A DNA stretch of 27,110 nt from a virus (Duplodnaviria; Heunggongvirae; Uroviricota; Caudoviricetes): the IMG/VR virus record IMGVR_UViG_2534681878_000029; one strand, given 5' to 3'. Positions 5,678 to 24,446 of this stretch are shown here, piece after piece (the first letter of the stretch is position 1; every line of letters starts with the position of its first letter). The notes beneath the pieces were generated by a model, which was not told where the DNA came from, ran no database searches, and saw only the letters and a list, made by a program, of their open reading frames with translations. Position numbers and translations under genes: made by a program.

Positions 5678-6568
5678 TCAGGCTGCCAGATCATCGTTTC
5701 CGATGGAAGCATAATAAGCTTTTTCTGCTTCTGCCGGAGGGATATGACCCAGCCTTCCCAGCAATCGTCGATTGTTATACCAGTCCACCCACGTGAGTGT
5801 GGCCAGTTCCACTTCTGCACGGTTTTTCCAGCTCTTACGGTGTATTACCTCCGCTTTGTAAAGACCATTGATGCTCTCCGCCATCGCGTTGTCATACGAG
5901 TCACCTGTACTCCCTGTTGATGCCAGCAGTTTTGCTTCTTTTAGTCGCTCCGTATAGGCCAGTGATACATACTGAGAACCTTTATCACTGTGATGGACTG
6001 TGCCGGACGGCCGACGGGCCCACAACGCCTGCTCCAGTGCATCCAGCACGAATGTCGTTTCCATAGACGATGAGACTCGCCACCCCACGATGTATCCGGC
6101 AAACACATCAATGATAAACGCCACATAGACGAAGCCCTGCCATGTGCTGACGTAAGTAAAATCAGCCACCCACAGCTGGTCAGGTCGTTCTGCCACGAAC
6201 TGACGGTTTACGCGGTCGCCTGCGGCAACGGCTTTCCGGCTGATGGTCGTACGGACCTTTTTACCCCGGAGAACACCGGCAAGTCCCATAACCGCCATGA
6301 GACGTGCCACTGTACATCTGGCCACCCTGATTCCTTCCCGTAACAACTGACGCCAGACTTTACGCACACCGTACACCTGATGATTTTCATCGTATACGCG
6401 CTGTATCTCTCTCTTCAGCCAGTCGTCGTGCTGCGCACGGGCACTGCGTTTATCCGGATGATGTCGCTGTTGCTGACAATGGTAATACGTTGACGGGGCA
6501 ATATGCAGTTCGCTGCATACCGGTCCGACCCCGTACTGCTCACGCAGCTTATCCAGCAGTGGCATCAT
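5678..6568 (-). CDS. IS3-family transposase OrfB (copy 2)
   Basis: 296 aa, ~99% identical to the 1770-2660 product (e.g. I192V, G212K, T278I differences). Confidence 0.9.
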
Positions 6569-6891
6569 TTTTTCCAGAGGCGGTCGAACTCCGCCTTCGC
6601 AAAATAAGCGGAAGCCTGGCGAAGGATATCGTTACTGCGGCGCAGTTCACGATTTTCACGTTCCAGCTCTTTCAGACGCTGACGTTCAGCGCTGGTGAGC
6701 CCACCATCACCGCCCCCGGTATCCCGCTCATGCTGGCGAACCCAGACACGCAGAGTCTCCGGCGTACAGCCAATCTTTGGGGCAATGGAACAAATTGCCG
6801 CCCACTGTGAGTCATATTCATCCTGACTTTCCAGAACCATACGAATCGCCCGCTGACGGACTTCGGGGGAAAAACGAGTATTTTTAGTCAT
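6565..6891 (-). CDS. IS3-family transposase OrfA (copy 2)
   Basis: C-terminal 108 aa of the 316-aa track ORF are identical to OrfA of copy 1; the ATG is at 6889-6891 (reverse strand). The upstream 208 aa of the track ORF are antisense read-through and not called. Confidence 0.9.
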
Positions 6892-13198: not shown

Positions 13199-13360
13199 TC
13201 TCAACTTCCTCAAACGTCCGTATTAGTCCATAAAATCTCTGATTTATAACATTTTTTATTCTTTTAAGTCCATAGTAGTCCGTAACCATCCAGTAGAATC
13301 CGGTACTGAATGTGTATAGGATTGTGTATATGTTCCTGTTCGGTCTGGATTCCTATACAC

Positions 13361-14542
13361 ATGCCTTTAAACGATATGCAGATTCGCCGCGCTAAGCCTG
13401 AAGCTAAAGCCTATACATTTGGAGATGGGCTAGGGTTGTCATTACTTATAGAACCTAATGGAAGCAAGAGTTGGCGGTTCCGCTATCGCTATGCCGGCAA
13501 ACCCAAAATGATCTCGCTTGGTGTTTACCCAACGATCACCCTTGCCGATGCTCGTTCCCGTCGTGATGAAGCTCGAAAACTTGTGGCAGAAGGAAAGAAC
13601 CCTAGTGAGGTTCGAAAAGAGCAAAAGCTAGCTATGCAAACAGAGTCAGAGAACGCCTTCGAAAAGATAGCCAGAGAGTGGCATCAACTTAAATCTGCTA
13701 AATGGTCGGCGGGATATGCATCAGACATCATGGAAGCGTTTAAGAACGACATTTTTCCTTATGTCGGAACAAGGCCTGTGGGAGAGATTAAACCGCTAGA
13801 GCTGCTGAACGTTCTGCGTAAAATTGAGAAACGTGGTGCGTTGGAGAAAATGCGCAAAGTGCGGCAGCGTTGCTCCGAAGTGTTTCGCTACGCAATTGCA
13901 ACGGGTAGGGCGGAGTACAATCCTGCGGCTGATCTCTCCAGCGCTCTCGAAGTACACCAATCCAATCATTTCCCATTCCTAAAAGCTGATGAGATACCTG
14001 ATTTTCTACGTGCCTTAGAGGGTTACTCCGGGAGTAAGCTTGTCCAGATAGCCACGAAATTACTGATGATTACGGGTGTGAGAACCATCGAATTACGCGC
14101 GGCATTATGGCAAGAATTTGATCTGGATAACGCTATTTGGGAAATTCCTGCTGAAAGGATGAAAATGCGTAGGCCACATCTTGTGCCCTTATCATCTCAA
14201 GCGGTAGATTTACTCAATGAACTCAAGATCATGACAGGGAACTATCGTTATGTTTTTCCAGGGCGGAACGATCCGAATAGGCCAATGAGCGAAGCGAGTA
14301 TAAATCAAGCCATTAAGCGTATTGGGTATGGAGGAAAAGTCACTGGACATGGTTTTCGTCATACCCTTTCTACAATCCTGCATGAGCAAGGTTTTGAGAG
14401 TGCTTGGATTGAAATCCAGTTGGCTCATGTAGATAAAAATTCTATTAGGGGGACTTATAACCATGCTCAATATTTTAGTGGAAGGAAGTCTATGATGGAC
14501 TGGTACAGTAATTTGATATTTGAAAGACTAAAAAGGAGTTAA
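13361..14542 (+). CDS. int: P4-type tyrosine integrase (IntA/IntS-like, DUF4102 N-domain)
   Basis: MPLNDMQIRRAKPEAKAYTFGDGLGLSLLIEPNGSKSWRFRYRYAGKPK... with the C-terminal R...HGFRHT...Y catalytic signature; directly downstream of the tRNA-Thr fragment. Start moved to the ATG at 13361 because the track extension overlaps an inverted repeat. Confidence 0.9.
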   Translation: MPLNDMQIRRAKPEAKAYTFGDGLGLSLLIEPNGSKSWRFRYRYAGKPKMISLGVYPTITLADARSRRDEARKLVAEGKNPSEVRKEQKLAMQTESENAFEKIAREWHQLKSAKWSAGYASDIMEAFKNDIFPYVGTRPVGEIKPLELLNVLRKIEKRGALEKMRKVRQRCSEVFRYAIATGRAEYNPAADLSSALEVHQSNHFPFLKADEIPDFLRALEGYSGSKLVQIATKLLMITGVRTIELRAALWQEFDLDNAIWEIPAERMKMRRPHLVPLSSQAVDLLNELKIMTGNYRYVFPGRNDPNRPMSEASINQAIKRIGYGGKVTGHGFRHTLSTILHEQGFESAWIEIQLAHVDKNSIRGTYNHAQYFSGRKSMMDWYSNLIFERLKRS

Positions 14543-14545
14543 TTT

Positions 14546-14962
14546 GTGTCTCAACCACTTTCGGAAATATTGACATGGGATGATGAACAATGGGAGGTAT
14601 TTGTCCATGATTGGCTTATTGTCTGTAAATCAGATGATTACCCGTGGAGCGAACGTTTGGGAGGAGCTGGAGATAAAGGTAGAGACGTTGTTGGATATAA
14701 ATCGGATCCTAACGTAGAAGGTTATTCTTGGGATAATTATCAATGCAAACTGTACAAAAAAAGTTTAGGGTTCTCTGATGTTGTAGTTGAGTTTGGAAAA
14801 CTTATCTATTTTACTCTGAATGGTGATTATCCCATCCCTCAGAAGTACTTTTTTGTGGCACCCTATGATTTATCTACTACATTTTCTAATTTATTGAAAA
14901 ATAAAAACGAGCTTAAAAAAGCAGTCCTTGATTCATGGGATTCAGCAATTTCAAAAAAATAA
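14546..14962 (+). CDS. Mrr-like PD-(D/E)xK nuclease-domain protein (candidate effector, N-terminal part)
   Basis: GTG start 4 nt after the int stop with SD AAGGAG at 14533-14538. Motif GGAGDKGRDVVGY ... YQCKLYKK (residues 39-72) matches the Mrr_cat pattern g-DgG-D ... QcK. AT-rich. Confidence 0.6.
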   Translation: MSQPLSEILTWDDEQWEVFVHDWLIVCKSDDYPWSERLGGAGDKGRDVVGYKSDPNVEGYSWDNYQCKLYKKSLGFSDVVVEFGKLIYFTLNGDYPIPQKYFFVAPYDLSTTFSNLLKNKNELKKAVLDSWDSAISKK

Positions 14963-15552
14963 CTAAAAAGATTGATATTCCATTAGATGATGAAATAAAA
15001 AAATATATTGAGGATTTTGATTTTAGTATTTTTTACTCTCTACCCTTATCATTGATTTTAAATGATATTGCAAATACACACCTTTATTTTAAGTACTTTA
15101 ACGAGCTGTATGTCGTGAGAATCCCTCCAAATGAAATTCCAACATACAATTCAAAAAAAGAGTCTGTATATGTTAATGCACTGCTTCAAGCCTATTCAGA
15201 GCATGGAAATAAAACTTATAGTTCTTTCTTAGAGCTTGATGATCCATACAGACGACACTTTAATAATAGTAGAAATGATTTTTATTTTGCATCTTCGCTT
15301 GAGGTTTTTGTCCGCGAAGTATTTAAAGATGATGTATTCAAAGCATTGAAATGTTACATTTCATCTTCAATTGAACCCGTCTTTTATGAAGACCATAATT
15401 ATGCATTTATTAGGTGTAATGCAGTCTTGAAGCAGGCTGTTCTGACACCAATTGCACATTCAGTACTATCAAAAATATGTGAAGCAAATGATAAAAAAGG
15501 AATATGCCATCATTTGGTTAATGATGGTGAAGTAATTTGGACGGTGAGATAA
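14935..15552 (+). CDS. Hypothetical protein; possibly the C-terminal continuation of the preceding ORF via -1 frameshift at an A7 run
   Basis: 205 aa ORF overlapping the previous one by 28 nt in the -1 frame; the overlap contains AAAAAAA (14953-14959) followed by the 0-frame stop; no recognisable motif. Confidence 0.5.
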   Translation: MGFSNFKKITKKIDIPLDDEIKKYIEDFDFSIFYSLPLSLILNDIANTHLYFKYFNELYVVRIPPNEIPTYNSKKESVYVNALLQAYSEHGNKTYSSFLELDDPYRRHFNNSRNDFYFASSLEVFVREVFKDDVFKALKCYISSSIEPVFYEDHNYAFIRCNAVLKQAVLTPIAHSVLSKICEANDKKGICHHLVNDGEVIWTVR

Positions 15553-16010
15553 TGGTTAGAATTTATAATTCAAGTTTAGAAGTGGCATGTCGAATGGCGA
15601 AAGTGCTCGTCGCTATTTATCCTTCTTCATTAAGCCTTGAACGGCTTATTTGTTTTGATTTTATTTTAGTAAATCTTAAGGATTTTTTACCTGAAGAGAT
15701 TAGTCTTCATCCTCCAATACCCCGTAGAGATGCTCAGTTAGCCCTAAAACGAGAGATTGTTTTAGAATCATTGGCTTTGTTGCAAGGCTATGAACTAGCC
15801 TCAAAAATTTATACACATCGTGGTTTTGTATATAAAGCTTCTGAAAAAACATATGCATTTACAAATTCTCTACATAATGAATATGTTGCGCAGATGGAGC
15901 ATAATATAAATTTGGTGGTTAAGTTATATAGTGATATTCCTGATGAGCAGTTGCAATCAATTATAAAAAATAAAATTGGCAAATATGATATGGAATTTAA
16001 TTATGAATGA
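15552..16010 (+). CDS. Hypothetical small protein (middle component)
   Basis: 152 aa from the ATG at 15552, overlapping the upstream stop as TAATG (translational coupling); no recognisable motif. Confidence 0.5.
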   Translation: MVRIYNSSLEVACRMAKVLVAIYPSSLSLERLICFDFILVNLKDFLPEEISLHPPIPRRDAQLALKREIVLESLALLQGYELASKIYTHRGFVYKASEKTYAFTNSLHNEYVAQMEHNINLVVKLYSDIPDEQLQSIIKNKIGKYDMEFNYE

Positions 16011-16635
16011 CAATTTTTTTACGTTCAGAAAAATAAAGGTAACCGGATTCAATAAATTAGATGCTATAATTGAATTTGGTTCTAAATTGACTATTTTATA
16101 TGGTGGTTCTGACTCTGGAAAAACATACATATATTATTTGATTCGATATTTATTAGGGAGTGAAAAACTAAAAAATAAAGATATCGATCATGCTCAAGGT
16201 TATGATTTAGCCTATCTGGAATTTAATTTTCAAGGTAGGGTAATGACAATTGAGAGGTCTCTTCAGGATAGCGCCCATTACAGATTATATGATTCGAGCA
16301 TTGAAAATGTTAGTGAAGCTAATCTGTTGATGGTTTTTTCCAAAAGTGCTTCGTCTAAAAAGAGTTTTTCATCATACTTTTATGGTAGGTTGAATTTCAA
16401 AGAGGCTAAAGTAAGAACAAACTTAAGTAATACTCTTCATAAATTTAATCTTAATAATGTTTTTGAATTTTTTTGTATTGATGAATTAAGAGTGTTAACT
16501 GAGAAGTCGTTAATTCTTTCTGATATTCCTAGCGAGGAGACAAAAAGAAAGTCTGAATTTAAATTCCTTTTAACTCAGAGAGATGATACTAACTCCTTAG
16601 CAGAAAAACCAAATAAAAAAGCAAGATATTTTTAA
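15985..16635 (+). CDS. ABC/SMC-like ATPase, N-terminal head with Walker A
   Basis: FRKIKVTGFNKLDAIIEFGSKLTILYGGSDSGKT: the SMC/RecF/RecN-type N-terminal strand followed by P-loop GGSDSGKT (nt 16102-16125). Start uncertain (ATG 15985 or 16003). Confidence 0.6.
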   Translation: MIWNLIMNDNFFTFRKIKVTGFNKLDAIIEFGSKLTILYGGSDSGKTYIYYLIRYLLGSEKLKNKDIDHAQGYDLAYLEFNFQGRVMTIERSLQDSAHYRLYDSSIENVSEANLLMVFSKSASSKKSFSSYFYGRLNFKEAKVRTNLSNTLHKFNLNNVFEFFCIDELRVLTEKSLILSDIPSEETKRKSEFKFLLTQRDDTNSLAEKPNKKARYF

Positions 16636-16665
16636 AAAAATCAAATTGCAAATATTTATGAGGAA

Positions 16666-17256
16666 TTGAAAGCGCAATTAATTTATCCTGAATATGATCA
16701 AGTCATTGTTTCAAGAGAACTTGAGAAAGTAGAGCAAGATATTGAATCATCGAAAGATATATTGAAAGGTATTGTTGATGCACTTGATGATAAGAAGCAA
16801 TTATTAAAAGAGTTAAGTGATGAATTATATTCAATCAGTGACAGGGAAAAATACTTATCATTACTCATTGAAAGATTTAGTCTTCTTAAAGACCAATACT
16901 TTATAGATCTACAAAGAATAGATGTTGTATCACAGGCGAATTTCTATTTAAATAATTTTGCAGATATTTATTGTGAGTTCTGTAATACACCGCAAAAAAA
17001 AGAAAATGAAATATCATATGATGATTGTTTTTTGTCGTGTAATGCAGAAAAATTGAAAATCAAAAGCCAGCTGAAAGGATTAATTGAATCAATCGGATCT
17101 AATGTTCGCGAACATGAATTAATTATGTTAAGAAAAAATGATGTTAATGAAATTTATCAATCAGAAAAAAGTGATTTTAAGACGTTAGAAGATAAAAATA
17201 TAAAACAATACATTCATCTCTTGAATCACTTTATGAATATAAAGACAATCTTTTAA
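16666..17256 (+). CDS. Coiled-coil segment, same frame as the preceding ORF and separated from it only by a single TAA
   Basis: 196 aa rich in heptad-like K/E/L/I repeats; the track start is TTG with no convincing SD; in frame with 15985-16635 across the TAA at 16633-16635. Confidence 0.5.
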   Translation: MKAQLIYPEYDQVIVSRELEKVEQDIESSKDILKGIVDALDDKKQLLKELSDELYSISDREKYLSLLIERFSLLKDQYFIDLQRIDVVSQANFYLNNFADIYCEFCNTPQKKENEISYDDCFLSCNAEKLKIKSQLKGLIESIGSNVREHELIMLRKNDVNEIYQSEKSDFKTLEDKNIKQYIHLLNHFMNIKTIF

Positions 17257-17822
17257 TGGATCACACAAAACATAGCATTCTATCTTCATTACAAGATAAA
17301 GAAGATGATGTTGACGAACTTAAATACTCCGCCGAGGACTTTGACTCCTTAACAGTAGCTGATTTGTATGATATAGAAATAGCGATGCAAGACTTTTTGA
17401 ATGATATAAATTTTGAAAATTCTAAAGATAACAAAGTGCGATTTGACGAAGATACATATGACTTTAATATCAATGGGAAACGCCGAGGAATGTTTGGTAA
17501 AGGTACCCGTGCAGTAATGCATGCTATATTTACCATTTGCTTTGCGGAATTTTTATCAAGAAAAGGGAATCCATTCATTGGATTTGTTGTGCTTGATAGT
17601 CCATTAGTGACGCACTTTGATAAAGATAGAGGGGGTTCTCTATCGGATGTTAATAGCGTCAGTCTCAGTGATTCATTTTATCACGCATTAATCAAAAGGG
17701 ACTATAATTTCCAGATTGTAATTCTTGAGAATAAAGGTCCGACGTTCCAAATAAAAATTAATGATGCAAATAAAATCCATAACTTAAATAAGAATGGAAG
17801 CTCTGGTTTTTATCCTGTTTAA
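17256..17822 (+). CDS. ABC/SMC-like ATPase, C-terminal head with signature-like and Walker B motifs
   Basis: ...RRGMFGKGTRAVMHAIFTICFAEF (signature-like region) followed ~20 aa later by IGFVVLDSP (Walker B-like hhhhD); ATG overlaps the upstream stop as TAATG. Confidence 0.55.
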   Translation: MDHTKHSILSSLQDKEDDVDELKYSAEDFDSLTVADLYDIEIAMQDFLNDINFENSKDNKVRFDEDTYDFNINGKRRGMFGKGTRAVMHAIFTICFAEFLSRKGNPFIGFVVLDSPLVTHFDKDRGGSLSDVNSVSLSDSFYHALIKRDYNFQIVILENKGPTFQIKINDANKIHNLNKNGSSGFYPV

Positions 17823-20196: not shown

Positions 20197-20743
20197 CACA
20201 TAAATAGACTGCATGTTTTTGCCGGGGAATAACATTTTCGCCTCTGGCCATGGTGTTGCATTTCATACTGATTTTTATAAAACTAGATCTGTCCGGTTCT
20301 TTATGGATTCATTCGGATATATTTTACGATTTAAGGTGATGTTATTTAATATCAAGGTTTTTATGCAGGCCCAATGTTTATAAGTTGGATGCGATTCAAA
20401 AATATGCCCGGAAATTGGGGCCTGCAATGCAAGGCCTCGTGTAGAAGTTGTACTGCCTTGCTGTATTGGCGGTGGGGTTAGCACTATCAGGTGCAATGAC
20501 CCATAGGATAGTAAACCCTGGGTGAATGGTAGTTCCTATTAATGCTCCTGTATTTATAGTCCGCAGGCATGGTATTTATTATGTCATTTTATATGGTTTA
20601 ATCGGGCTTTAAATTCCATAAAATCAATATGTGACGCTAAATAAAAAATGCGTGCGCAGGTGGTTTATATACACATAATAAGGAACTACCTGAACCCGGA
20701 TAAATTCATCCGGACTGTTGTGGAAATTAAAGAGGGTAGATAA

Positions 20744-21004
20744 ATGCGTAATATTTCTGTGTCTGCGCCAGCTCCTGCTGCGCCATTATTTCCTGTATCG
20801 AACCATCATGAGCGATTTTTACGCCTGCCTGAGGTGATGCACTTATGCGGGTTGTCCCGTTCGACCGTTTACGACCTGATCAGCCGCGATGCGTTTCCGA
20901 AGCAGATCCCGCTTGGCGGTAAAAATGTCGCCTGGGCACAGTCTGAGGTCAGCGCATGGATGGCGGACCGCATCAGCGCCCGTGGGCGGGGATGTGATGC
21001 ATGA
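20744..21004 (+). CDS. AlpA-family DNA-binding regulator (prophage excisionase/regulatory HTH)
   Basis: 86 aa; [52 protein letters not shown] is the AlpA/MerR-like HTH signature found in P4-like and CP4-57-like elements. Confidence 0.8.
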
Positions 21005-21554
21005 TGATACCTGCATACATTAAATACCTTTATTCTGGCTTGCTTACTGTCGTCATTTCCAGGTATAGTTTTTCCGCTGTCGCAAAATCGGCAGCCGGAA
21101 TTGGCGTTCCGTATAACTTATTGGCGACAATTGACGCCCCTTGCGTCTTTTTTTACGTCGTAGCTCAGGCACAACCATTTTCAGGGCTGTGGTGTTTATG
21201 CTTACACCATGGTTCTATCGAGATAATGGTAGTCCGGGCGGGGCAGCCTTCGGGCTGGCCGGTTTCCAATAAGGCCGGTTACGCCAACCCCGTTCGGGCT
21301 GCCACCAGTGAAATTGGCGTTTCCGGTGGTAGCAATAACCGCTACTTATTGGAGGCTGCCATCATGGCTACAATCCTCACCCCGTCACACCCGCAATATG
21401 TCTTTGTGTTTGCCGCAATCCGCCGTGCTGACACTCACCCCCGCATCTGTATGCTTCGCACTGTCTCCTGCGATGAGCGTTCCGCGCGCCGTTTGCTAGT
21501 CCGAGATTATGTACTCTCCCTTTCTGCACGGCTGCCTGCCGGGGAGGTGACGCT

Positions 21555-21776
21555 ATGAACCAGTTTGAGATTTCCTACGACGATGTTGTAAGGCTGAAAC
21601 ATTTACGCAATGTGGGTGAGTATGTAACTGGCATGGCAGTCCTGCAGGACTGTTATGAAAAGCCAGCAGGTGCCCAATGCGAACAACTGGTTTCCCTCAT
21701 TTATCTGATGACAGAGCAACTGGATGGAGTGGTGCAACGCTGCCATGACGACCTGATGAATGCGGAGGTGGCCTGA
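21555..21776 (+). CDS. Hypothetical small protein of the P4-like early operon
   Basis: 73 aa, ATGA start/stop overlaps with both neighbouring ORFs, co-oriented with the primase; no motif recognised. Confidence 0.45.
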
Positions 21777-22099
21777 TGATATGCTGTGAATCTCTTCTGG
21801 CACTTCGTGCCGCTCTGTATCGCCGTGCCGTTGCCTGTGCCTGGCTGGCTCTAAGCAATCATCAGGAACGTTATTCCGGCCTGACGCTCGCTGAACTTGA
21901 AGATGCCATAGCCCGCGAGCTGGAAGGGTTCTATCTGCGCCAGCATGGGCAGCAAAGAGGGCTGGAAATTGCCTGCGCGTTGCTTTCGGATCTGATGGAG
22001 TCGGGGCCGCTTAAAGCCTGTCCGGTTCTCTCACTGCTCGGAATGACGGTCATGGATGAACTTTGTTCCCGTCACCTCAACAAACCAGCGCTGCACTAA
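21776..22099 (+). CDS. Hypothetical small protein of the P4-like early operon
   Basis: 107 aa, coupled to the upstream ORF (TGATGA overlap) and ends 13 nt before the primase ATG. Confidence 0.45.
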
Positions 22100-22112
22100 G
22101 GAGGGCCGCACA

Positions 22113-24446
22113 ATGTCAGGAATGAAAGTTAGCCAGGCTGAGAAAGCAGCTCGGGGTCACTGGTCAAGAATTTTACCTGCGCTGGGCGTAAATGTACTGA
22201 AAAATCGGCACCAGCCCTGCCCGGTCTGTGCCGGGAAAGACCGCTTTCGATTTGATGACCAGGAAGGGCGGGGAACGTGGTTCTGTAACCAGTGCGGGGC
22301 AGGTGATGGCCTGGCGCTTGTAAGTAAAGTACTGGATGTAGGCATTAGTGAAGCGGCAGACAGAATAAACGGCATTATCGGAAACCTGCTGCCAGTATCT
22401 CAGGGAATGCTTGAATCTGGTTCTCCTGAAAAAGAGGACGGGAGAAAAGCTGCAGCAGTGCTGGCTGCCCGTTTGTTTGATAAGTCCCGCCAGACCACTG
22501 GCAATGCCTATCTGACGAGTAAAGGGTTTCCTGCACTGCCTTGCCGGGAATTAACCGCTATGCATAAAGTCGGTGGTGTGGCATTTCGCGCGGGAGATCT
22601 TGTCGTTCCATTGTATGCAGATGGAGAGCTGGTAAATCTGCAGTTAATCAACGCTAATGGGGGCAAATGCTTCCTTAAAGGCGGTCAGGTTAAGAATGCC
22701 TTTTACCTGGTTGAAGGTACTGCCAAAGCAGCCAAACGGCTCTGGATAGCGGAAGGATATGCCACCGCACTTACTATCAACTATCTGACTGGCGATGCTG
22801 TCATGGTGGCCTTTTCGTCCGTCAATTTCCTTTCCCTGGCGAGCATTGCCTGCAGTGAGTACCCAACGCACCAGATAATTATTGCTGCTGACCGCGATCT
22901 CAACGGTGCGGGGCAAACAAGGGGCGCAGCTGTTACCGGGGCCTGCAATTGCACAATGGCGCTCCCGCCTGTGTTTGGTGACTGGAACGATGCATTCACG
23001 CAAAACGGCGAAGAAGCCACCCGGCATGCAATTCATGAAGTAATAAAACCAGCTGTTGCCAGCCCCTTCGACACAATGAGCGAAGCTGAATTTACCGCGC
23101 TGAGCGTCAGCGAAAAAGCGCAGAGGGTAGTGGATCACTATAAAAATTCACTGGCAGTAGACCCGAACGGGCAGCTCCTTTCATGCTATGAGGCGGGGGC
23201 CTGGAAAGTTATCTATTACGCCGATTTTGCCCGTGATGTCGCTGCGCTGTTTCAGCGCCTCGACGCACCTTTTTCATCCGCGAAAATTGCGTCTCTCGTG
23301 GAAACCCTCAAACTGATCGTTCCGCAACAGCAGAATCCGGCGCGGCAACTTATCGGATTTCGCAACGGTGTGCTCGATACCCGGACAGGATTGTTCAGCC
23401 CGCACGATAAGAAGCACTGGTTACGTACGCTGTGCGAGGTGGATTACACGCAGCCCGTTGACGGTGAGTCACTGGAAACCCATGCCCCGGCATTCTGGCG
23501 CTGGCTGGATCGTGCCGCAGGTTTTAATCCTGAAAAACGGGACATTATTCTGGCTGCATTGTTTATGGTGCTGGCTAACCGTTATGACTGGCAGCTGTTT
23601 CTGGAGGTCACTGGCCCTGGCGGAAGTGGAAAGAGTATTCTTGCTGAAATAGCAACCATGCTGGCGGGTGAAGATAACGCGACCTCGGCAACCATTGAAA
23701 TGCTTGAGTCGCCAAGAGAACGAGCTGCGTTAATAGGTTTTTCACTGATTCGACTTCCCGACCAGGAAAAGTGGAGCGGTGACGGGGCCGGACTAAAAGC
23801 CATCACTGGCGGCGATGCGGTATCCGTTGATCCCAAATATCAGAACGCCTATTCAACCCACATCCCGGCGGTCATCCTGGCTGTGAACAATAATCCGATG
23901 CGCTTCACTGATCGTAGTGGTGGAGTTTCACGCCGAAGGGTGATCCTGCATTTCCCCGACCAGATAGCCCCGGAGGAACGCGATACCCAGCTCAAAGAGA
24001 AAATTGCCAGTGAGCTAGCGGTGATTGTTCGCCAGCTTATGCAGCGTTTCAGCGACCCAATGAGTGCCAGGACATTGCTTCAGTCACAGCAGAACTCCGA
24101 TGAAGCGCTCACCATCAAACGTGATGCTGATTCAGCTTTTGATTTTTGCGGCTACCTTGAGGTCCTACCTGACACCACGGGCATGTTTATGGGGAACGCT
24201 AATATTGTTCCACGTCAGCCTCGAACTTACCTCTACCATGCCTATCTGGTCTACATGGAGGCTAACGGCTATAAAAATACGCTCAGTCTGACCATGTTTG
24301 GCAAGGGGCTACCGTTAATGCTCAAGGAATATGGGCTGCAGTATGAGAAACGACGGACCAATCAAGGAATGCAGACTAATCTGGCCCTAAGAGAGGAAAG
24401 CAATGCTGACTGGTTGCCAAAATGCGATGAGTTTGCAGCGAAATAA
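22113..24446 (+). CDS. P4 alpha-like primase/helicase (zinc-binding domain, TOPRIM primase, D5-like SF3 helicase)
   Basis: 777 aa from the ATG at 22113 (SD AAGGAGG at 22099-22105). N-terminal CPVCAGKDRFRFDD...WFCNQCG zinc ribbon; Walker A GPGGSGKS in the C-terminal helicase; same length as P4 alpha. Confidence 0.9.
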   Translation: MSGMKVSQAEKAARGHWSRILPALGVNVLKNRHQPCPVCAGKDRFRFDDQEGRGTWFCNQCGAGDGLALVSKVLDVGISEAADRINGIIGNLLPVSQGMLESGSPEKEDGRKAAAVLAARLFDKSRQTTGNAYLTSKGFPALPCRELTAMHKVGGVAFRAGDLVVPLYADGELVNLQLINANGGKCFLKGGQVKNAFYLVEGTAKAAKRLWIAEGYATALTINYLTGDAVMVAFSSVNFLSLASIACSEYPTHQIIIAADRDLNGAGQTRGAAVTGACNCTMALPPVFGDWNDAFTQNGEEATRHAIHEVIKPAVASPFDTMSEAEFTALSVSEKAQRVVDHYKNSLAVDPNGQLLSCYEAGAWKVIYYADFARDVAALFQRLDAPFSSAKIASLVETLKLIVPQQQNPARQLIGFRNGVLDTRTGLFSPHDKKHWLRTLCEVDYTQPVDGESLETHAPAFWRWLDRAAGFNPEKRDIILAALFMVLANRYDWQLFLEVTGPGGSGKSILAEIATMLAGEDNATSATIEMLESPRERAALIGFSLIRLPDQEKWSGDGAGLKAITGGDAVSVDPKYQNAYSTHIPAVILAVNNNPMRFTDRSGGVSRRRVILHFPDQIAPEERDTQLKEKIASELAVIVRQLMQRFSDPMSARTLLQSQQNSDEALTIKRDADSAFDFCGYLEVLPDTTGMFMGNANIVPRQPRTYLYHAYLVYMEANGYKNTLSLTMFGKGLPLMLKEYGLQYEKRRTNQGMQTNLALREESNADWLPKCDEFAAK

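Follow-up and report, generated by a model that had tools for sequence, protein, structure and literature searches.

Introduction

The CI RNA of P4 and the C4 RNA of P1 were characterized in the 1990s, and in the published models for both elements a block of translation is coupled to premature termination of transcription. The kil gene of P4, which encodes 65 aa, reportedly forms the end of a longer frame, eta, and translation of eta from transcripts that begin at an upstream promoter is said to prevent termination in P4. CI is processed from an untranslated transcript and has seqA and seqC as its partners, according to the literature on P4, and the precursors of both P4 CI and P1/P7 C4 are among the substrates of RNase P (PMC5499578). 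A study of 2010 catalogued the Rfam motifs (PMC2864571). In Gifsy-1 a leader RNA, IsrK, acts in trans and activates translation of the frame that lies downstream of it (PMC4825925). The noncoding RNAs given as known for O157:H7 EDL933 in an EHEC study of 2017 include Rfam "C4" and "isrK (2x)", and a census of P4-like satellites used the Pfam family PF10554 as its "epsilon" profile (PMC8628076).

We analyzed a stretch of 27,110 nucleotides from a virus of the Caudoviricetes (IMG/VR record IMGVR_UViG_2534681878_000029), referred to below as the window. A sequence-only reading had singled out the segment 21180-21330, within an ORF that it considered doubtful, as a possible structured small RNA of the P4 CI type, placed between the early promoter and the alpha gene. 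The Rfam match (RF01695), a layout shared with P4, and covariation bear this proposal out, and we are highly confident that positions 21222-21309 encode an antisense immunity RNA of the C4/CI family, belonging to a P4-like satellite prophage. The finding is correct but already known; the RNA itself is not new, and what novelty there is, if any, lies in the by-products of the comparison with related loci.

Results

The locus belongs to a complete P4-like satellite

The window matches E. coli O157 chromosomes at 100% identity and holds a complete P4-like satellite, with integrase, delta, psu, sid, AlpA/Vis, a DUF5375 protein (P4 orf106), and the alpha primase-helicase. The AlpA/Vis-like gene aligns with P4 orf88. 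The features of the segment that follows it are collected in Table 1.

Table 1. Features of the immunity locus, in window coordinates
Feature	Positions	Strand	Basis
AlpA/Vis-like regulator gene, counterpart of P4 orf88	20744-21004	+	PF05930 Phage_AlpA, E = 1.2e-19
Long open frame, 185 codons, counterpart of P4 eta	21001-21558	+	Starts in an ATGA overlap with the AlpA/Vis stop
PLE-like sigma-70 promoter (predicted)	21040-21069	+	-35 TTGCTT 21040-21045, 18-nt spacer, -10 TATAGT 21064-21069
isrK-type leader	21076-21153	+	RF01394, 71.9 bits (gathering 50)
Upstream target a1 (TTGGCGT), loop of second leader hairpin	21101-21107	+	Exact 7-nt complement of a' (21281-21287)
Upstream target b1 (CTTATTGG)	21117-21124	+	Exact 8-nt complement of 21266-21273
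C4/CI-type antisense immunity RNA	21222-21309	+	RF01695 match, fold, stem covariation
Downstream target a2 (TTGGCGT)	21314-21320	+	Exact complement of a'
Downstream target b2 (CTTATTGGA)	21345-21353	+	Exact 9-nt complement of b' (21265-21273)
Small Icd/Kil-like gene, 64 aa, last third of the long ORF	21364-21558	+	NF033153, coding signature

Beyond the long frame, at the place of epsilon and orf151 in P4, there is an ORF of 73 aa (21555-21776). It gave no Pfam or NCBIfam match, and epsilon (PF25738) was not found among the ORFs scanned, those of 21001-22099. The 73-aa ORF is probably the ~75-aa protein that is found in 61% of P4-like elements and is absent from P4 itself (PMC8628076).

Positions 14546-17822, which lie between the integrase gene (13310-14542) and delta/psu, carry RefSeq annotations for ABC-three-component system proteins, an AAA ATPase, and hypothetical proteins; the integrase-psu hotspot, known from P4-like satellites, here has defense-type cargo. 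Two matches to the ALIL pseudoknot, of 121.5 bits each (1728-1844 on the plus strand and 6494-6610 on the minus strand), mark a pair of inverted IS3-family (IS1203-like) copies, flanking remnants of the lambdoid cI/cro/cII type. In the reference strain that matches the window at 100%, the two annotated IS copies share one orientation, and strains may differ by an inversion or other rearrangement of the IS-flanked stretch.

Identity and fold of the immunity RNA

The whole window was scanned with Rfam at gathering thresholds, and a more permissive scan was run for 20500-22100. Two matches above gathering were obtained in this segment, both on the plus strand: RF01695, the C4 antisense RNA, and RF01394, isrK. 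The RF01695 model was matched over its full length (1-87) in the scan of the window, scoring 84 bits against a gathering threshold of 45 (E = 2e-15); a covariance-model search of this kind had been proposed as the check on the sequence-only reading, and it came out in favor of the RNA. The matches to snoU105B, CRISPR-DR22, and IS009 within 20500-22100, at E = 0.1-0.2 and far under gathering, were rejected as chance.

Folding of 21222-21309 gave a minimum free energy of -50.8 kcal/mol, compared with -34.8 ± 3.3 kcal/mol for 200 dinucleotide shuffles (z = -4.9), none of which was as stable; for the full segment 21180-21330, z was -5.1. The minimum free energy and centroid folds of 21222-21309 agree, and they have the architecture of a C4/CI RNA, an outer helix of 17 bp enclosing two hairpins and an unpaired 3' segment. 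Hairpin 1, CAGCC-TTCG-GGCTG (21244-21257), has a C(UUCG)G tetraloop. Hairpin 2, GGCCGG...GGCCGG (21258-21278), comes directly after it and has a large variable loop. A CCA (21305-21307), read from the sequence, follows the helix. The tetraloop hairpin, the GGCC/CCGG palindromes, and the GC-rich stretch on which the earlier proposal was built are all present where it had placed them: the GC content of 21180-21330 is 57.6%, compared with 44.7% for the window, and only 4% of intervals of the same length, 151 nt, are equally GC-rich.

The RNA gene proper is confined to 21222-21309. A 13-bp hairpin, GGGCUGUGGUGUU...ACACCAUGGUUCU at 21183-21216, lies in the spacer that separates the leader terminator from the C4 RNA, and contributed to the earlier impression of a hairpin-dense segment. 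We considered this hairpin as part of the RNA gene and rejected it; the spacer in which it falls is variable, ranging from 50 to 106 nt between leader and C4/CI RNA, and the spacers of relatives are not generally structured (median z = -1.2, 56 distinct spacers).

Covariation within the stems

A scan of viral contigs with a pattern for hairpins 1 and 2 yielded 120 loci, corresponding to 108 distinct 600-nt segments and 77 distinct 88-mers. The stems were then examined in an independent MAFFT alignment of 81 distinct sequences. Standard pairs occupy 94.8% of the stem pair cells, compared with 23-51% when the partners are slid. Compensatory cells, in which both sides have changed, number 101, compared with 30 ± 5 in shuffles and 2-16 in the slid controls; the loci are phylogenetically related, so that the shuffle controls overstate the significance. 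In the outer helix, 8 of the 17 pairs show double changes. Since the search pattern left little of hairpins 1 and 2 free to vary, the covariation comes mainly from the outer helix and from two free positions of hairpin 1, which are always compensated. RNAalifold gives the same C4/CI architecture. Folding combined with covariation across homologs, which had also been suggested as a check, thus sides with a structured RNA.

Promoter and leader RNA

We infer that 21040-21069 functions as a PLE-like promoter. It was missed by a generic promoter scan, the -35 element matching at only three of six positions, and was found by way of P4 and the related loci. Of 85 related loci, 76 have TATAGT and 7 have TACAGT as the -10 element, and the TTGC of the -35 element is nearly invariant; the promoter as a whole is kept in 83 of the 85, and the terminator in every one. 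The predicted transcription start, at about 21076, is the position at which the isrK model begins.

The leader is made up of two hairpins and an intrinsic terminator, whose stem (21133-21147) is followed by a run of T residues (21148-21154). A run of at least six T residues closes the leader in 85 of 85 relatives. The upstream target sites described below are held within the leader. A third Rfam family, RF03163 (c4-a1b1, "a1, b1 targets of C4 antisense RNA"), covers 21063-21115 with 44.6 bits, slightly under its gathering threshold of 46.7.

The immunity RNA covaries with its targets

Hairpin 2 carries the loop element b' (TCCAATAAG, 21265-21273), exposed in the C4/CI RNA as UCCAAUAAG; the element a' (ACGCCAA, 21281-21287) is single stranded. 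Exact complements of each are found both upstream and downstream of the RNA gene (Table 1); in the terms used for P4, the two elements answer to seqB, the upstream site a1/b1 to seqA, and the downstream site a2/b2 to seqC. The Shine-Dalgarno sequence of the small gene, GGAGG (21351-21355), is partly covered by the downstream target b2, whose 3' end is 9-13 nt ahead of the small-gene ATG in every scored locus.

Matching between RNA and target was scored as the share of 107 loci in which an exact complement extended over 7 nt or more; for the control, each RNA was compared with the flanks of another locus. The loop b' found its upstream target b1 in 89% of cases within its own locus, compared with 15% in the control, and its downstream target b2 in 91%, compared with 12%. 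Corresponding values for the strand a' were 97% against 3% for a1 and 96% against 3% for a2. All four matches reach at least 7 nt in 74 of 84 P4-like loci. This intermolecular covariation is the strongest functional evidence for the RNA, and it shows that there are many distinct immunity specificities: the 84 P4-like loci combine 18 loop cores with 8 single-strand cores in 35 ways. With six interleaved copies (a1 b1 .. b' a' .. a2 b2), no single crossover can exchange just one module.

A separate complementarity was observed between the 5' strand of hairpin 1 (GGCAGCCU, 21242-21249) and the ribosome-binding region of the small gene (AGGCTGCC, 21353-21360); it extends to 10 nt in P4. With G-U pairs included, a match of at least eight pairs occurs in 81% of 85 loci, compared with 6% for shuffled targets, the RNA side being fixed by the search pattern. 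The match may reflect a second way for the precursor to fold in cis, or it may lengthen the b2 duplex.

A proposed circuit and its alternatives

The family and structure of the RNA, its stem covariation, the positions and covariation of the six pairing elements, the conservation of promoter and terminator, the coding status of the small gene, and the selected openness of the long frame are the observed parts from which we propose a circuit. Expression in this strain would begin at about 21076, from a constitutive PLE-like promoter (-10 at 21064-21069), and most transcripts would end at the intrinsic terminator (21133-21154), giving a short leader of the isrK/SeqA type. In transcripts that read through, the C4/CI structure would be cut from an untranslated precursor, as in P4 and P1, where the 5' cut is made by RNase P. 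The mature RNA would then present the loop b' of hairpin 2 and the single strand a', which are expected to pair with transcripts of the same operon, at a1/b1 in the leader and at a2/b2 just downstream. Translation of the small Icd/Kil-like gene would be blocked by pairing at b2, which overlaps this gene's ribosome-binding site. The untranslated RNA would be prone to premature termination, which in P4 takes place at the Rho-dependent terminator timm, used in dependence on CI RNA and translation, and by analogy would have a Rho-dependent site here, and the replication genes up to the alpha primase (22056-24446) would remain silent in the lysogen. Transcripts started at an upstream promoter, entering by way of the AlpA/Vis gene, would by contrast translate the 185-codon frame, and this translation may override termination in the manner of P4 eta.

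The RNA might instead act mainly as a translational repressor of the P1 type, or as a partner or sponge of the leader, as proposed for Gifsy-1 IsrK, and not through termination of the P4 type. We regard this as unlikely, if still to be taken seriously. The overlap of b2 with the Shine-Dalgarno sequence would suit a repressor, as would the Icd-like domain of the small gene; however, repression and termination are not exclusive mechanisms, and the models for P1 and P4 couple the two. A role as partner or sponge has its precedent in the Gifsy-1 leader, with its activation of downstream translation in trans (PMC4825925), but the locus is collinear with P4, and not with P1 or Gifsy-1. Control by termination of the P4 type remains the reading that we prefer.

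The RNA gene could be a relic in a domesticated prophage, silent and dispensable, but this is improbable. Cryptic P4-like elements are numerous in E. coli, and the near-identity of the sequence over 308 E. coli records may reflect O157 clonality, not selection. Nevertheless, the promoter, terminator, RNA, four targets, small gene, long frame, and alpha ORF are all intact, and integrase, delta, psu, sid, and AlpA are retained; moreover, the same specificity pair is found, with matched targets, in several independent viral contigs.

The long frame is open but only its end evolves as a protein

RefSeq annotates the whole of 21001-21558 as one CDS for an Icd-like protein, without annotation of the RNA gene. 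The frame crosses both RNA genes before it enters the small gene. The Icd-like domain of NCBIfam (NF033153) matches only aa 133-179 of the translated ORF, and Pfam PF10554 (Phage_ASH) matches aa 22-132 with 104.6 bits, compared with a gathering threshold of 26. The ORF is matched by 1107 database proteins, of which the best 120 are nearly all about 185 aa long.

Codon tests were carried out on a gap-free subset of 42 distinct loci. Within the last 64 codons, column entropy at the three codon positions is 0.40/0.35/0.90, and the synonymous fraction reaches 0.73 in-frame, compared with 0.12-0.15 off-frame. Of 36 indels counted in the small gene among the related loci, 32 are multiples of three. 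Over 21001-21363 the same 42 loci gave no codon periodicity: entropy is flat, and the in-frame synonymous fraction, 0.12-0.32, is no better than that of the other frames. The sequence-only reading had doubted the 185-aa ORF and had favored an RNA over a protein. Its doubt is upheld for the upstream 121 codons, in which there is no selection on amino acids, and is mistaken for the last 64, which form a real Icd/Kil-like gene; the ORF exists, and only this last part of it evolves like a protein.

The stretch matched by PF10554 coincides with the isrK and C4 RNA genes. Conservation peaks on these two Rfam elements, at 0.40 bits, compared with 0.77-1.02 bits in the flanks and spacer, and the stretch fails the test for amino acid selection, its in-frame synonymous fraction being at the off-frame level. 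Conservation of the ORF at the protein level had been named beforehand as an outcome that would count against an RNA. Such conservation is superficially present, in PF10554 and the 1107 homologs, but it tracks the RNA, because the synonymous fraction in-frame is no higher than off-frame. We conclude that PF10554 Phage_ASH largely consists of translated RNA genes. In P4, this family matches the old "cI/ash" frame (L002:1698-2291) and not epsilon, which is PF25738; the "epsilon" marker of the satellite census, PF10554, probably detects the immunity-RNA/eta region. It is very improbable that the segment is merely part of a 185-aa protein of the Ash family or Icd-like kind with incidental hairpins, since the RefSeq CDS, the PF10554 match, the homologs of uniform length, and the open frame, which all speak for such a protein, are outweighed by the lack of any third-position excess before 21364 (synonymous fraction 0.12-0.32, compared with 0.73 in the last 64 codons), by the conservation peaks on the Rfam elements, and by the stem-compensatory pattern, in which variable positions covary with distant complements and which no protein model explains.

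The openness of the frame is itself conserved. The frame is open for 100 codons or more ahead of the small-gene ATG in 81 of 85 loci, compared with 1 and 3 loci for the other two frames, and spacer lengths differ among loci only by multiples of three. An in-frame stop is found in 2 of 56 distinct spacers, compared with 21 in each of the two other frames and 27.9 ± 3.7 in shuffles. Frame-breaking indels seen upstream of 21364 in a MAFFT alignment of the 85 loci were rejected as an artifact of the unalignable spacer; distances measured directly are multiples of three. Upstream of 21364, openness and phase are selected and the amino acid sequence is not. By analogy, this fits the nested eta/kil arrangement of P4, in which translation would matter and not the protein.

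Discussion

The annotation of this locus can be corrected to a promoter, a leader RNA, an antisense RNA with four targets, a 64-aa gene, and a frame through which ribosomes pass. Taken jointly, three wider propositions are put forward tentatively: that the long frame is a ribosome-transit ORF throughout the P4-like family, selected only for openness and phase; that the names PF10554, "ash family," and full-length "Icd-like" largely stand for a translated RNA locus; and that immunity specificity is a two-part combinatorial code, which has changed repeatedly in concert. If such a code is undescribed at this scale, it raises a real question of how RNA-based immunity types diversify. An RNA gene inside an obligatorily open frame can mimic a convincing protein family, as PF10554 illustrates, and this family feeds both the naming of genomes and the marker sets used for satellite detection.

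Three described systems resemble the locus. Gifsy-1 IsrK (RF01394) likewise has its own promoter and terminator, with read-through into a downstream frame that is conserved in nucleotide and not in amino acid sequence. In Gifsy-1, however, orf45/anrP and an antiterminator circuit lie downstream and IsrK is a trans-activator, whereas the leader described here carries C4/CI target sites.

The C4 RNA of P1/P7 (immI, c4-icd-ant; RF01695 and RF03163) is of the same RNA family and has the same architecture. It likewise has an a'/b' pair, with a1/b1 upstream and a2/b2 downstream, and its downstream site also overlaps the ribosome-binding site of an Icd-like gene. The two differ in context, which is an antirepressor (ant) operon in P1/P7 and a satellite replication operon, with the alpha primase, in this element.

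P4 shares this context. Positions 20807-21549 align at 69% over 743 nt to P4 orf88 and the historical "cI gene product" CDS, and each locus follows the orf88/Vis gene and precedes DUF5375 (orf106) and the alpha primase. All three Rfam elements recur in P4, in matching order and spacing, and so do the six pairing elements, which occupy homologous positions and include two bipartite target sites. The small gene encodes 65 aa in P4 and 64 aa here, the two products being 81% identical, and the long frame, which is open from the Vis stop in both, runs for 198 codons without a stop in P4 (the "cI/ash" frame noted above) and for 185 here. The tetraloop is UCCG in P4 and UUCG here, and the 73-aa ORF takes the place of epsilon and orf151. 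The sequences of the two specificity elements and of the four targets are different in P4, and neither RNA is complementary to the targets of the other, so the O157:H7 satellite is predicted to be heteroimmune to P4, and likewise to many other P4-like elements, with which it would be able to share a cell.
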